Shown piece after piece: positions 7,712 through 32,521 of a DNA stretch of 41,426 nt. The notes beneath the pieces were generated by a model. The model searched no databases and was not told the origin of the DNA. It saw only the letters and a list, made by a program, of their open reading frames with translations. Position 1 is the stretch's first letter. The number at the start of each line of letters is the position of its first letter. The translations under genes and the position numbers were made by a program. The DNA is from a virus (taxonomy: Duplodnaviria > Heunggongvirae > Uroviricota > Caudoviricetes): IMG/VR virus record IMGVR_UViG_2711768022_000004; one strand, given 5' to 3'.

Positions 7712-8233
7712 ATGGAACTAAAAAATATAACCCGTTATTATCCTGAAAATATGCCATATGGTAATAATGTTCAGTATTTCCAGAGTGAAGATGGTAAGGA
7801 TTTCTACGAATCCCTGCCATTATTCACCAAAAAATATAAACTTTGCATAACACCTGACAGCGGCGTTATCTGCTCAATATCACAGGACGCCTCGGCGCTG
7901 TATCCTGCGGGGTTTTCTGTGGTTGAGGTCGATGAACTCCCTGAAGGCACGGATATTTCAGGAAACTGGAAGTTTGATAATGGCATAATCTCCCGTATTC
8001 CGGTTAACTACGCAAGAAAACTGGAAGCAATGCGCCAGTCATATCTTAATCAGGCATATGAAAAAATTAATGACTGGAGAACGGAGCTACAACTGGGCAC
8101 CATCAGCGATGAAGACAGAGCAGCACTTACCCAATGGATGGCATACATCAGTCAGGTGAAGAAAATGGAACTACCCGCCATTAAAACAGAAGCTGAATTT
8201 AACGCCATTAAATGGCCTGAGCAGCCACAGTAA
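7712..8233 (+). CDS. tail-fibre assembly protein (P2 G / Mu U-like)
   Basis: 173 aa; DASALYPAGFSVVEVDELPEG and the C-terminal ISDEDRAALTQWMAYISQV region resemble P2 gpG-type chaperones; AGGAGG Shine-Dalgarno. Confidence 0.8.
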   Translation: MELKNITRYYPENMPYGNNVQYFQSEDGKDFYESLPLFTKKYKLCITPDSGVICSISQDASALYPAGFSVVEVDELPEGTDISGNWKFDNGIISRIPVNYARKLEAMRQSYLNQAYEKINDWRTELQLGTISDEDRAALTQWMAYISQVKKMELPAIKTEAEFNAIKWPEQPQ

Positions 8234-8236
8234 TAA

Positions 8237-8256
8237 AGAAGGCCGGAAGGCCTTCT
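8237..8256. terminator. hairpin between convergent tfa and fibre genes (possible bidirectional terminator)
   Basis: AGAAGGCC-GGAA-GGCCTTCT perfect 8-bp stem in the 31-bp gap between the two stop codons; flanking U-runs are weak. Confidence 0.4.
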
Positions 8257-8264
8257 GAATATCA

Positions 8265-9146
8265 TTATATACTTGCAGCCGTCACCCATGCTCCATTTAA
8301 CAGATACTGCAACGGCCGGTAATACACGCCGCCGACGTTATCTGCCGTATTCTTACCGACATCCTGTACTTTAATTCCGGTAAGAACATTGCCGCCCCCC
8401 AGATTCAGATCCCAGCTTTCCCATGTTCCGGGCATATGTGCGGTCACCGACCCCAGTCTTATGGCGGTTACTGTTCCTGATGAGATAGTGATATCCTGCG
8501 TCCCGTCAAAGGGAACACCATTAATTGTGTGGGCATTTGCCAGCCTGTTCGCGGCAACGGCGGTGCCGTCCGATGGCAGGGCATTCGCCGCCCTGTTTAC
8601 CGTTTCCCGTAAACCGACGTTATCGATAAAAGCCCCTTTATCCGGAATGTCTGCGCCGTTCTGCTCCCTGCGCAGGTAACGGTTATCACCTTCGCTTTTG
8701 CTGTAAACATCCAGATTATTACGGGCGGTTCCCTTATTCTCCAGGTCGGCGAGATTCTGATCCTTCGCCAGGGCATTAACGTCAGCGGGACCAAGACTGT
8801 TTTTTGTGGCAAGCGTCCCCAGACCAAGATAACCACGGGCCAGACGCTGGGCCTCCGCACCGGCATCAGCAATTTCTTTCAGGTTATTTTTCCGGGAAAA
8901 GGCATTCGCAGCGATAATGGCTTTAATGGACAGCGTAAGCTGGTTTAACTGCGCCTTATCCGGCTGAATACTGGCTTCAGCCAGAATATTCAGCAGTTCG
9001 GCCTGGAGAATATTCAGCCAGTCCTGACCAATCCAGCTGATACCTTTTTGTCCGTCACCTTCGGTAAACCAGGTGGTGGTATTACTCTGCGCCGGTGCCA
9101 GCGCAGGCATATTCGCCACGCCGGAATTATTATCAACATGAAACAT
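8265..9146 (-). CDS. tail fibre protein (constant N-terminal part plus currently expressed variable C-terminal part)
   Basis: 293 aa; N-terminus [18 protein letters not shown]...[30 protein letters not shown] typical of Mu S / P2 H-type fibres; contains the gix-like site. Confidence 0.8.
8604..8629. other. gix/hix-like crossover site for the serine invertase, inside the fibre gene
   Basis: TTCCCGTAAACC-GA-CGTTATCGATAA: two 12-bp half-sites in inverted orientation around a 2-bp core, resembling gix (TTCCTGTAAACCGAGGTTTTGGATAA, from memory); falls at fibre codon about 173. Confidence 0.55.
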
Positions 9147-9706
9147 TAAATAGTCTCCTCTTCATGGCTGTTTGCATAAACGTAAATAAACGTCTGCCAT
9201 GCAGGCTTATAACGGTTCAGAATACATTCCAGCGCACCGCCTTCATAAATACGCAGCGGCGTGAGAATATCATCCAGCACATTCATATTCCGGTAGCCGG
9301 TTTCACTGTTAATCGTGACAATACTGACCCACTGCGAATCCGGTGAGGGCTGAATGTCAATCTGATAACCAAACTCCGCCGCAAACCGGATATAAAATTC
9401 ACGGTTCAGCGAGGGCTTCATCCGGTATTTATTTCCGGCATAACGCTGTCGCTCCGTGAGGGTGGCTCCGGCCATATCACACTCGGGAAGCCCGAGATAA
9501 CGCTCCCAGTCTTCCAGCAGCAGGCGCGACGTGTCAGGGAAACGCTCGGCAAGCAGCTGTTTACCCGTCCAGGATACACGCGCTGTCGAATGACTGAGGC
9601 CCAGACATAATGATGCCAGTACGGATGACGGACGCTTGTCCCATGCCAGCCCGTCAGGCAGTAACTGCAACAGGGCGCGCTGATGCGGGGTCAGGGTTAC
9701 AGCCAT
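9146..9706 (-). CDS. tail/baseplate protein (Mu gp48-like)
   Basis: 186 aa; position between baseplate J-like gene and tail fibre. Confidence 0.55.
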
Positions 9707-29927: not shown

Positions 29928-30258
29928 TCGTGGCCGCCTTGCTGATTTGTGAAATGAGTTGCAGGGTGCGTTGCTGGTTTGCCAGCACCAGACGGGCTTC
30001 GTCCCGTTCACGCACAAGCACATGATTATTGTCCTCAAGGCGCTGCGTCTTCTGGTGCATTCCCCATACCACGGCAGCCAGCACGCTCATCACCCCCAGC
30101 GCCGCCATACAGCCTCCGGCAATCAGGGCCGGTAAGGGATTGTTCACCGCAGACACAGCACACCCCGCAGCAGCACAACGGCACACAGCAGCGCAATCAT
30201 GAGCGGTCGCCAGAAGCGGTTCAGACTTTCGGCAAATCGTAACGACATAACCATTCAT
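29758..30258 (-). CDS. i-spanin-like inner-membrane protein (start uncertain)
   Basis: N-terminal hydrophobic helix (LIAGGCMAALGVMSVLAAVVWG) followed by Gln/Arg-rich coiled-coil; overlaps endolysin 3' end. Confidence 0.5.
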   Translation of the reverse strand: MNGYVVTICRKSEPLLATAHDCAAVCRCAAAGCAVSAVNNPLPALIAGGCMAALGVMSVLAAVVWGMHQKTQRLEDNNHVLVRERDEARLVLANQQRTLQLISQISKAATNEKQQNMQHSEEQQSIVRRSLATVPAAAVPVPDDVADRVRRAVCEIRAGEAGADPR

Positions 30259-30721
30259 CCGCCGAACGGCGGGCCTCAAGACCGGGGAGTTTTACCCCCT
30301 TTGAATAAATCCAGCGGATATACTGCTTACAGGACGCGGGCATCTGCCCGGCATTGATAAGGCGCAGGAGCGTGGAGTTGCGAAAGTTCGTTTCACCGGC
30401 CCAGAAAATCCAGGAGGCCAGCGCCACCGTCTGACCACGGGTAAGCGGCACCTGAACATGACGATCGATAGCCGCAAAGGCCCATTTCATGTCCTTTTCC
30501 AGCAGCTCCAGACACTCTTCATCAGTTTTTGTCATCCCCGGTTTCACATCCGGGCCGGTATGGCCGTAACAGATGGTGGGGGTGCCGGTGGGATCAATGT
30601 ACGTGGTGTTTTCTTTCCCTTCCCAGTAGCCGGTGTAGTGCGTGGCAATGGTGAACGTCCCGGCTCCGGCCAGAACAAGGGCAATCAGCTTTTTACGCAG
30701 GGGTGCGGGGAGTTTTGGCAT
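30221..30721 (-). CDS. endolysin, T4-lysozyme type with N-terminal signal-anchor-release (SAR)-like segment
   Basis: Catalytic spacing E-8-D-5-T in YWEGKENTTYIDPTGTPT; Gly/Ala-rich hydrophobic N-terminus LIALVLAGAGTFTIATHY. Confidence 0.75.
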   Translation of the reverse strand: MPKLPAPLRKKLIALVLAGAGTFTIATHYTGYWEGKENTTYIDPTGTPTICYGHTGPDVKPGMTKTDEECLELLEKDMKWAFAAIDRHVQVPLTRGQTVALASWIFWAGETNFRNSTLLRLINAGQMPASCKQYIRWIYSKGVKLPGLEARRSADEWLCRYDLPKV

Positions 30722-30722
30722 T

Positions 30723-30760
30723 GTTACGCTGTCTCATGGTGTTCTCTGAGTCAGCGTAAC
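30723..30760. promoter_or_regulatory. 9-bp inverted repeat immediately upstream of endolysin start
   Basis: GTTACGCTG (30723-30731) ... CAGCGTAAC (30752-30760), 20-bp spacer; ends 2 nt before the lys ATG. Confidence 0.3.
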
Positions 30761-30792
30761 CGTGAGGAAAAGGGGGCAGGATTTGCGGAATA

Positions 30793-31215
30793 TCAGAAAA
30801 GCCGTGGCTGCGTGCGTTCCTGATGCAGGCGACGCTGGTTGCGGATAACGGAGTAAATCTGCGTCTCTGACATCTGGTAGTGGCGGCGCAGGGTTTCAAT
30901 TTTTTCGCCCTGGCTCCAGCGGGAAAAAATTTCATTATTGCGCAGTTCGGTGAAAAGGGATTCACCGACCGGGAGATAATAACCACGCCCGCCCATGTAC
31001 CCGGCCTGTGCGGCTGCAACCTTACGGGCAAGCATTCCCGCCTGAGCAGGTTCAATCCCCTGACGGTGCAGTTCAGCACTGATCACATCAACCAGGTCCC
31101 GCAGCGTGCCGGGCCAGTTCTTTTTCAGCTCATCATCAGGAATATCATCCAGACGGTCAATCAGCGCGTGCAGCTGTTCGCTGTCACCAAACATGCTCAT
31201 CTGTGTTTCAGCCAT
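30793..31215 (-). CDS. mor: Mor/C-family transcriptional activator
   Basis: 140 aa; N-terminus MAETQMSMFGDSEQLHALIDRL resembles Mu Mor (MTEDLFGD...); directly after gemA-like gene. Confidence 0.65.
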   Translation of the reverse strand: MAETQMSMFGDSEQLHALIDRLDDIPDDELKKNWPGTLRDLVDVISAELHRQGIEPAQAGMLARKVAAAQAGYMGGRGYYLPVGESLFTELRNNEIFSRWSQGEKIETLRRHYQMSETQIYSVIRNQRRLHQERTQPRLF

Positions 31216-31285
31216 ACCCGCCTCCGGTCATCATTACACAGGGCAAGTTTAAAATAAAAATCCCGCGCTGTGGCGGGATTTGGGG

Positions 31286-31798
31286 TTAACGGGGGAATGA
31301 TTTTTCATACAGCCTGCAAACACGCTCATAACTCATCACTGCACGTTCCGACATATCCAGGGCTGCCAGCATTTTGCGGCGGTGCCAGCGTTTGAGACGC
31401 TCCAGCACATCAGAGGCCAGCGCGGGTTGTTGCTCCAGCCACTGCCAGTTAGCCACACCTTCGCCGTCGTTCTGCGCGGCCGTCTGCGATTTCACCCAGC
31501 GGTTAAGGGCCGTTTCCCCGCCATCAGAGATAAATCCCTGCCGGTGCATCACTTTCCAGATGGCGCGAATTTTGGCGGTCACCGTACCCGGTTTTAAGGC
31601 CCGGTTAACCGGCTTCTGACGCACTTTAAAACCGCGTTTTTTGAAAACATCCAGCACGCGGGATAACTCACCGGGTGACATATCACGGCAACTGGATTTG
31701 CCGGTGGCTGCCAGCAGCGCGGATGTATAGGTATCATGGTCAAGCTGTAGATCGCGTTTTGCGACATGTATTAAGGTAATCAGGGAAGCGCGATTCAT
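31286..31798 (-). CDS. gemA: GemA-like regulatory protein (Mu gp16 family)
   Basis: 170 aa; MNRASLITLIHVAKRDLQLDHDTY... resembles Mu gp16/GemA; precedes mor. Confidence 0.6.
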   Translation of the reverse strand: MNRASLITLIHVAKRDLQLDHDTYTSALLAATGKSSCRDMSPGELSRVLDVFKKRGFKVRQKPVNRALKPGTVTAKIRAIWKVMHRQGFISDGGETALNRWVKSQTAAQNDGEGVANWQWLEQQPALASDVLERLKRWHRRKMLAALDMSERAVMSYERVCRLYEKSFPR

Positions 31799-31810
31799 TA
31801 TCGTGGCTCC

Positions 31811-31840
31811 ATAAAAAATGGGCGGTGTTACCGCACCGCC
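31811..31840 (-). terminator. candidate rho-independent terminator/attenuator just upstream of gemA
   Basis: On minus strand GGCGGTG-CGGTAA-CACCGCC followed by CATTTTTTAT; 12 nt later GGAG and the gemA start. Confidence 0.45.
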
Positions 31841-31868
31841 ATGTCAATTAACATAAAAGGAAAAATCT

Positions 31869-32108
31869 ATGTCAGATATAAAAAATGCACTTGATGTTGC
31901 CGCATTCACAATGGCTGGAAATCTTATGGTAACCCTGTTCGATAAGGGGCTGATTTCCCGTGAGGAGGCAATACATATTATCAATCTCGCTCAAAAAAAC
32001 TCTACCCCGGAAAATGCAGAAGATATCCAGGATGGCTCATATATTAATACCGACTGGCATTTCGACAATCTCCGGGCCTGTATGGGGATTACCGCTGAAA
32101 AAGATTAA
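31869..32108 (+). CDS. hypothetical protein encoded opposite to the early operon
   Basis: 79 aa; AAGGA Shine-Dalgarno 7 nt before ATG; AT-rich; 3' end overlaps convergent minus-strand gene by 20 nt. Confidence 0.4.
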   Translation: MSDIKNALDVAAFTMAGNLMVTLFDKGLISREEAIHIINLAQKNSTPENAEDIQDGSYINTDWHFDNLRACMGITAEKD

Positions 32109-32376
32109 AAATTTTTGCATAATGTTCAGATGTAAGAATTGCTGAACCATCAACACCGAGCCTACGGCGAACGTATTCCTCGCGGGCTATTTTATTATCC
32201 AGAGATACAGCATCCTTAATCAGGTTAATCTCCCGCTCCATTATCAAAAGGGCTTCTCTGGCTGCAAGATTTTCTTTTATCGCATATTCGATAATGTCCC
32301 GCATACGTTCAAGCATGCCGATTTTAGCCAGTTCTTCGTCGATAGATTTAGGCGCAAATTTGATTTCTTTTTCCAT
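32089..32376 (-). CDS. hypothetical coiled-coil protein (start set at ATG 32374-32376)
   Basis: MEKEIKFAPKSIDEELAKIGMLER...; GAGGA Shine-Dalgarno; listed longer ORF starts at GTG. Confidence 0.5.
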   Translation of the reverse strand: MEKEIKFAPKSIDEELAKIGMLERMRDIIEYAIKENLAAREALLIMEREINLIKDAVSLDNKIAREEYVRRRLGVDGSAILTSEHYAKIFNLFQR

Positions 32377-32377
32377 A

Positions 32378-32521
32378 TTATTCATCCTCACAATTTATAC
32401 ATGCAGTGTCGTCGCCCATATCGCAGTGGTTACATTTTATCTCACCACAATGTGGGCACTCTTTCAGATACTCCGGGTCCTCATTTCCACAGGTGGGACA
32501 TTCAACAATTTGCTCATCCAT
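32378..32521 (-). CDS. small Cys-rich zinc-ribbon protein (47 aa), not in the supplied ORF track
   Basis: MDEQIVECPTCGNEDPEYLKECPHCGEIKCNHCDMGDDTACINCEDE; ATG overlaps upstream stop and its stop abuts the next ATG. Confidence 0.5.
   Translation of the reverse strand: MDEQIVECPTCGNEDPEYLKECPHCGEIKCNHCDMGDDTACINCEDE

Follow-up and report, generated by a model that had tools for sequence, protein, structure and literature searches.

The window analysed here, a stretch of 41,426 nucleotides, is a Mu-like Escherichia coli prophage whose early operon lies on the minus strand; the minus-strand genes comprise those for transposase A and B, gam, gemA, mor, and lysozyme. Identical DNA (100%) occurs in six complete E. 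coli genomes, and it is present in 14 out of 5426; E. coli JE86-ST05 shows 100% identity in the region of interest. This region is the junction of the accessory part of the Mu-type early operon with the gemA-mor unit, and it holds two separate elements: a gene resembling gene 15 of Mu, and a hairpin on the side of gemA. It is flanked by a homologue of Mu E15/gp14 (32089..32391, minus strand; phrog_6075, E = 6.3e-44), which is the last translated early gene ahead of a gap of 290 nt and for which RefSeq gives 32376 as the start, and by gemA itself (31286..31798, minus strand; 170 aa; Pfam GemA, E = 1.8e-28). The gene in the gap occupies positions 31869..32108 of the plus strand, starts with ATG, and encodes 79 amino acids; a Shine-Dalgarno-like AAGGA (31857..31861, plus strand) is located 7 nt before the start codon. 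The gene lies antisense to the early operon and diverges from gemA, the two start codons being 70 nt apart; its 3' end and the E15/gp14 homologue are convergent and overlap by 20 nt. On the minus strand, the sequence GGAG-CC-ACGAT-A-ATG (31796..31810) forms the start module of gemA. A block of 200 nt (31750..31949), which reaches from the 5' end of gemA across the 70-nt intergenic gap into the plus-strand gene as far as its codon 27, is nearly invariant: only one variable column was found among six prophage alleles, compared with approximately 6 per 50 nt elsewhere. This suggests either a dense regulatory constraint or a recent exchange of the block.

The hairpin is encoded on the minus strand, 22 nt upstream of the gemA ATG, and reads GGCGGTG-CGGTAA-CACCGCC (31821..31840). 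It is followed by the tail CATTTTTTAT (31811..31820, minus strand), whose T6 run at 31813-31818 gives the element the shape of a terminator in the window lineage; in the direction of the minus strand, the order is stem-loop, CATTTTTTAT, GGAG, and gemA ATG. The stem consists of 7 pairs, 6 of which are G-C, and the loop of 6 nt, values that lie within the terminator criterion of at least 5 bp and a loop of 3-8 nt. The folding energy is about -12.4 to -13.2 kcal/mol in the window and between -12.4 and -16.6 kcal/mol across all variants. A sequence-only reading of the locus had pointed to a GC-rich minus-strand hairpin with a T-run directly upstream of gemA, and this is what was found, with the stem-loop extending from 31840 to 31821 and T6 following. 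A scan of 3 kb yielded 4 terminator-like sites, compared with 3.4 ± 2.1 in shuffled sequences, which is no excess, and the local fold at the hairpin is unremarkable (z-score -1.06). Likewise, the length of the antisense ORF alone is not above chance, as longer antisense ORFs are common in the window. Because neither the ORF nor the hairpin beats chance alone, the case rests on the comparison with related sequences. A search of positions 31200-32500 against Rfam 15 gave no hit near threshold; the best one in the hairpin region was FopS with 18.4 bits (gathering threshold 56; E = 6.5). A structured leader or riboswitch-like attenuator was considered and dropped because the folds do not exceed shuffled sequences in stability, with z-scores of -1.36 for the 306-nt minus-strand RNA and of 0.13 for the 341-nt plus-strand RNA.

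For the comparison, 110 gemA loci obtained from a protein search and further loci carrying the gemA start motif were used. In 33 out of 114 gemA loci, many of which are redundant, the pattern GGCGG-N10-CCGCC ends 19-22 nt before the gemA ATG. In these 33 loci, the antisense gene is of the gp15 family 25 times and DUF2513-like 6 times, and in the other 2 there is none; the hairpin is present in each of the 25 loci having a gp15-family gene. It is retained directly after a forward gene in L151 and L157/L268, and it is missing where a forward gene abuts gemA (L003 and L056 types). Wherever the hairpin occurs, it is accompanied by the motif GGAG-NN-ACGAT-N-ATG, which is missing from the hairpin-less gemA loci that stem from the protein search. 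Since the hairpin occurs in relatives without any antisense gene, it is not part of the ORF module; the idea that it forms a "moron" together with the ORF was rejected, as it persists without the ORF. Instead, it belongs to the start module of gemA and is conserved as such across Mu-like phages. Seven stem-loop types could be distinguished. The five pairs GGCGG/CCGCC are invariant and the loops vary (CGGTAA, TTGCAG, CACTTA, and TTGCCA were found among the variants); variation is confined to the two top pairs, in which both partners are exchanged (CG for UA in two cases, UA for GC) or GC becomes GU. Over 7 base-pair positions and 10 sequence variants, the stem cells are paired in 70 out of 70 cases, compared with 95% in shuffles. 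Read from few independent changes, this pairing pattern looks like the signature of a selected RNA (or single-strand) stem.

The function of the hairpin may be judged from its tail and from its distance to gemA. In the window, the stem is followed by a U-rich tract in the sense of the terminator criterion (CAUUUUUUAU; 6 U in the first 8 nt, with "CA" between stem and T-run). The homologous hairpins with such a tract are those of the window, L046, L075, L110, and L044, whereas in Mu, D108, and L096 no more than 3-4 of the 8 nt following the stem are T. The tails read CCCTTTCC in Mu, TCTTTCC in D108, TTTAACC in L096, and TGTTTTTAC in L046; those of L046 and L110 contain T5, and one metagenomic variant of the window lineage has T5 instead of T6. 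In this comparison, the tail is the least conserved part of the hairpin element. In the Mu record, TransTermHP calls are found within gp14 and after mor, and none at the homologous stem. The distance between the hairpin and the Shine-Dalgarno sequence of gemA is only 8-11 nt; consequently, no promoter fits downstream of the stem, and any gemA-mor transcript should have passed through the hairpin unless it was started there. For this reason, the hairpin can be a partial terminator at most. The proposal that it marks an operon boundary had to be given up in its strict form, because transcripts must pass or start there. The accompanying proposal, an attenuation of read-through into gemA-mor, is plausible for the window lineage with its stem and T6, but the T-run is not conserved.

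We rank first the reading that the hairpin is a leaky terminator of transcripts from the early promoter, and we give it about an even chance. Beyond the E15 homologue, these transcripts would continue for 290 nt without being translated, as the complement of the gp15-like gene, before they reach the stem and U6, where a fraction of them would terminate in the window lineage. Such a termination would lower and delay gemA and, in combination with a second terminator described below, the late activator Mor. From the arrangement of the elements we infer that a partial termination of early-promoter transcripts at the hairpin, serving a regulatory purpose, is most likely. A Rho-utilisation site in the untranslated minus-strand stretch found no support (the C/G ratio is 1.0 and there is no C-rich, G-poor window), and in the literature on Mu-like prophages no transcript data were found for the hairpin region. 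We know of no antitermination factor for the hairpin upstream of gemA, and none was found for the window hairpin.

The reading ranked second is compatible with the first one. Here, the hairpin is the 5'-proximal stem-loop of a gemA-mor mRNA which is initiated internally, at a counterpart of the semi-early or "gem operon" promoter of Mu; we regard this as possible, if on the unlikely side. The promoter would cover the beginning of the gp15-like gene, transcription would start at or just before the stem, and the stem would stabilise the mRNA or mark a processing site, the T-run being incidental in the window lineage. In Mu, a semi-early promoter is annotated at positions 8151-8217 (AF083977.1, citing PMID 9454718), which is the equivalent position upstream of the gemA Shine-Dalgarno sequence, and the homologous stem GGCGGTG...CACCGCC (8193-8212) is located inside it. 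In addition, as far as the reference list of PMC3820752 indicates, the gem operon has been reported to be constitutively expressed in lysogens. However, the window and Mu differ in what follows the stem (T6 and CCCTTTCC, respectively), they are unrelated in sequence on its 5' side, and no promoter was found in the window by scanning: the search for consensus promoters gave no site in the intergenic gap on either strand, including positions 31799-31960 of the minus strand, and none for the plus-strand gene. Almost every variant has AT-rich hexamers resembling a -10 element that end 0-6 nt ahead of the stem, but these are weak, do not satisfy the criteria of the scan, and are expected anyway from the composition opposite the Shine-Dalgarno region. 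By eye, CTGACA and GTTAAT can be recognised in the window, separated by 17 nt and ending 6 nt before the stem, and L096 has CGGACA-17 nt-TGTAAT in the same geometry; yet the candidate -10 element GTTAAT lacks the conserved A at position 2, and the geometry is, again by eye, not common to Mu, D108, or L103. The reading gains from L157/L268, which retain the 15 nt before the stem (TGATGTGTAAATTCA) though the antisense gene is gone, and from the near-invariant 200-nt block, which resembles the divergent control region to be expected. It leaves unexplained the T6 and T5 tracts in the types represented by the window, L046, and L110.

A second, canonical terminator-like hairpin follows gemA. By means of scanning and folding, AAATCCCGC-CACAGC-GCGGGATTT with the tail TTATTTTAAA was identified at 31258..31281 of the minus strand, the tail reaching to about 31248. 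This hairpin has 9 pairs and a folding energy of -12.9 kcal/mol; it starts 5 nt after the gemA stop codon and about 45 nt before mor and its Shine-Dalgarno sequence. Its conservation extends to many Mu-like prophages having non-overlapping gemA and mor genes, where it shows compensatory variants, for example AAATCCCAC...GTGGGATTT in L100 and AAAACCCGCC...GGCGGGTTT in L084. Mu and D108 are without it because their gemA and mor overlap. Compared with the hairpin upstream of gemA, the one following it appears to be the stronger one and is preferable as a candidate operon boundary. Between this second hairpin and mor, no promoter is evident. The mor gene (30793-31215, minus strand) encodes the sole candidate for an activator of the Mor/C type, and the lysozyme gene (30221-30721, minus strand) follows directly. 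Between these two genes (30721-30793), there is no gene for a second activator of the C type, unlike in Mu, where gp18-gp20 and C are located between mor and lysozyme. Due to the direct succession of mor and lysozyme, Mor appears to be the only Mor/C-type activator of the window prophage, and it is presumably the only late activator in this lineage. Mor thus sits behind two terminator-shaped elements; this arrangement offers a testable idea of how Mor could be kept low until full induction.

A further reading, which we consider unlikely, assigns to the stem-loop the role of a promoter-selective gate: early transcripts, which contain the whole stem and the U-tract, would largely be terminated, and transcripts from an internal promoter would escape. 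For this purpose, a weak internal promoter would have to overlap the start codon of the gp15-like gene, and the base of the stem would be where its transcripts begin; the internal promoter would then be occluded by the leftward transcription of the gp15-like gene or by its translation. If this were true, the antisense gene and the hairpin would time gemA and Mor and hence the commitment of a Mu-type prophage to lysis, and the second terminator after gemA would constitute an additional checkpoint. Quite improbable is a role of the inverted repeat as a DNA-level operator controlling the divergent gemA and gp15-like genes. An operator would agree with the central position of the repeat in the 70-nt divergent intergenic region and with the outer five pairs GGCGG/CCGCC being invariant in every variant despite differing flanks. 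The inner pairs, however, change compensatorily and the 6-nt centre varies freely, which fits an RNA stem better and makes a DNA operator less likely; moreover, the repeat is retained where the divergent gene is missing, and no candidate binding protein was identified.

With respect to the plus-strand gene, the 290-nt gap between the E15 homologue and gemA is closed in all three minus-strand frames, so that the plus-strand ORF is the only reading frame there. RefSeq annotates the identical protein on the same strand (WP_001280088.1, hypothetical protein); what is new here is the membership of this already annotated gene in the Mu gp15 family. Among divergent alleles, taken from E. coli genomes and viral contigs, up to 30 of the 237 sites of the gene are different, and dN/dS values between these alleles lie in the range 0.17-0.36. 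In the C-terminal half, dS is 0.95 and dN is 0.15; the first 80 nt show unusually few synonymous changes (dS 0.11). Shine-Dalgarno sequences of a comparable kind were recognised by eye ahead of every gp15-family member in the related loci. These findings show a genuine gene under purifying selection. The claim that a 79-aa plus-strand ORF with a good ribosome-binding site lies within the minus-strand early operon is borne out, as AAGGA, selection, and gp15 homology agree. The scan gave no consensus promoter for the plus-strand gene, and its expression is putative. As the gene faces away from the early promoter, its transcription must use a separate leftward promoter; being transcribed opposite to the early operon, like the repressor gene, it should be uncoupled in its expression from the early promoter, and its product may be made in the lysogen.

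Within the 79-aa gene, a run of seven A (31993..31999, plus strand) has A6 and A8 variants in the databases, which shift the frame of the C-terminal third. Homopolymer variants of the A7 run and of an allelic C-run near 32005-32012 (L275-L278) lead into the same alternative frame, which gives products of 91-92 aa and ends at 32145. Among the frameshifting variants, A6 was found in two Logan assemblies, and C8 in one genome from NCBI and one metagenome from ENA, the C run being shorter in the intact allele; the A8 variant of the A7 run gives a product of 59 aa. The N-terminal 43 residues are unchanged in every homopolymer variant. These variants could be sequencing errors, decay, or real length variation. 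Since 5 out of 10 close protein clusters are frameshifted in the C-terminal third, this part of the protein may be dispensable. Two STEC genomes (L005, NZ_CP027586.1; L006, NZ_CP075632.1) carry an IS1 insertion at positions equivalent to approximately 31831-31860, either in the hairpin region or a short way upstream of the plus-strand gene; one of these insertions is linked to a deletion that fuses the plus-strand gene to baseplate genes.

In the RefSeq entry of Mu (NC_000929.1), Mup15/gp15 (NP_050619.1; 88 aa) is annotated at complement 7896-8162, just upstream of gemA. It occupies the same slot between E15/gp14 and gemA as the window gene, has the same antisense orientation, and its start codon is 70 nt away from the gemA ATG, which is identical to the spacing in the window. 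The PHROGs of Mu gp15 are 8747 and 32893; the 79-aa protein matches phrog_32893 with E = 1.3e-45 and Mu gp15 matches the same PHROG with 7.7e-4. The local alignment of the two proteins scores 45, whereas shuffles reach 23.6 ± 4.4 and a value of 45 in 5 out of 5000 cases. Their sequence identity is only about 20-30% and a pairwise BLASTP comparison is not significant; the homology therefore rests on profiles and synteny. A joint profile was built from antisense ORFs adjoining gemA in several lineages; the shared gp15 core was deduced from the window, Mu, L109/L123, D108, L096, and L103. Searching with the joint profile recovers Mu-, D108-, and window-type proteins at E-values of 1e-27 to 1e-13, and Salmonella-type members of the family are also recovered by the profile search. 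The core of the family reads DVA[AG][FY]x[IM]A[GS]xLxxxLxxKGxI[ST]xxE, and L214, P0026, and P0027 bridge the sub-types. The N-terminal core is common to Mu gp15 with its 88 aa and to the window protein with its 79 aa, whereas the C-terminal third of the latter belongs to a different sub-type (INTDWHFDNL), which it has in common with P0030, P0031, and P0034. The C-terminal motif WH[FL]DNL recurs in several distant members of the family, which confirms the 79-aa frame. In 25 out of 25 loci, the start of the gp15-family gene is 67-73 nt away from the gemA ATG, save for one start called at 93 nt. To judge from position and profiles, the 79-aa protein is a positional and remote sequence homologue of Mu gp15 (Mup15). 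An exhaustive profile search found only 36 cluster representatives, which have lengths of 60-120 aa except for a few spurious long proteins; the family is small and enterobacterial. The gp15 gene is an old resident of the Mu lineage and not a recent insertion.

The AlphaFold model of the 79-aa protein, which was based on an alignment of 15 sequences, has a mean pLDDT of 76 and contains predicted helices at residues 2-25, 31-44, and 62-71. A residue count on the translation shows that the protein is acidic. A PDB fold search with the model gave no match at an E-value below 3; the protein has no match in Pfam, NCBIfam, or PADLOC, the distant family members have none in Pfam, and the literature search yielded neither functional nor expression data on members of the gp15 family. 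The member of the Mu gp15 (Mup15) family encoded by the plus-strand gene is small and acidic, with three helices according to the model.

The two public annotations of Mu (L001/L011) conflict on the coding strand at gene 15: in the updated GenBank record AF083977.1, gp15 has been swapped for a forward ORF of 55 aa, Mu_54 (7960-8127). A comparison of Mu with L109/L123 (66% DNA identity) leaves only the antisense frame open, with dN/dS values of 0.37-0.40, and the other five frames carry 3-7 stops. In the Mu_54 frame, dN/dS is about 0.5-0.6, and neither start nor stop is conserved in L109/L123; Mu_54 looks like a shadow of gp15. The comparison of L109, L123, L214, and the window favours the complement-strand gp15 over Mu_54, as the antisense frame is the only open one and has the lowest dN/dS. 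A forward-strand gene resembling Mu_54 was also considered for the gap and rejected, since the minus-strand frames are closed in the window and show no constraint in the Mu sub-family. That the plus-strand ORF is itself a non-functional shadow of a small minus-strand gene of the Mu_54 kind, or of a non-coding leader RNA, is in our view very improbable: the forward Mu_54 in the updated record, the frameshifts in half of the close protein clusters, and the low dS at the beginning of the ORF would agree with such an explanation, but all three minus-strand frames of the window gap are closed, the low dN/dS is confined to the antisense frame in both sub-families, the Mu_54 frame has higher dN/dS values and lacks conserved start and stop codons in L109/L123, neither an Rfam match nor, at the z-scores given above, a significant RNA structure was obtained, and protein motifs are conserved over 36 cluster representatives.

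In the D108 record NC_013594.1, a gap at approximately 7906-8281 (L012 707-1082) is left unannotated. It contains an antisense ORF of 119 aa, which belongs to the gp15 family, has the core FGITGFMLVGNLMIKLIENGVINMHDA, and possesses an acidic N-terminal extension of 35 aa. More generally, the slot upstream of gemA varies and holds a gp15-family gene, a DUF2513-like gene, or nothing. In other Mu-like phages (L044, L047-L050, and L074; L099, L108, L114, and relatives), a different antisense gene of 134-138 aa, beginning with MKIDYDE, is found in the same slot. Its similarity to DUF2513 is weak (23.6 bits, below the Pfam cut-off of 29.6), and its start is 64 nt from gemA where the hairpin is present and 30 nt where it is not. 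In L046, just the last 13 codons of this gene are left beside the hairpin. In the L003 (LC727881.1) and L056-L065 types, the segment comprising E15, gp15, and the hairpin is replaced by two to three forward genes abutting gemA; these prophages are closely related, with gemA being 85-87% identical. The replacement of the whole segment indicates that mosaic exchange takes place at this slot, and one of the junctions coincides with the 5' edge of the hairpin.

The value of these results lies mostly in annotation, as they independently support gene 15 of Mu, which faces backward, as a real gene: in the window and in relatives such as L214, L096, and L103, the antisense frame is kept under purifying selection, and the forward frames are closed or unconstrained. 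The comparison argues against the replacement of gp15 by Mu_54 in the updated GenBank record of Mu and for annotating the 119-aa homologue of D108. The initial sequence-only reading of the locus was correct in what it observed, and its interpretation was reasonable but only partly supported. Both the ORF and the hairpin are ordinary, known kinds of phage features, and the understanding of such phages is unchanged in principle.

Among known systems, the phage morons, accessory genes that are transcribed independently and have a promoter and a terminator of their own on either side, are comparable in that the window gene is likewise a small accessory gene, set against the surrounding operon in a variable slot. 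In the window, however, the hairpin is on the 5' side of the gene, has the opposite direction, and persists without the gene, for which neither a promoter of its own nor a downstream terminator was found. The hairpin upstream of gemA can be compared with lambda tR1 and with the early terminator after mor in Mu (9179-9200, AF083977.1), which likewise consist of a G+C-rich stem, a short loop, and a U-rich tail. Note that attenuators of the lambda tR1 type are, like the window hairpin, located after an untranslated stretch and ahead of a regulator of later expression. In contrast to these, the window hairpin is predicted only and its U-tract is not conserved in relatives; in addition, it lies 8-11 nt from the Shine-Dalgarno sequence of the next gene and so must be leaky. 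In Mu itself, a homologous hairpin also sits between gp15 and gemA.
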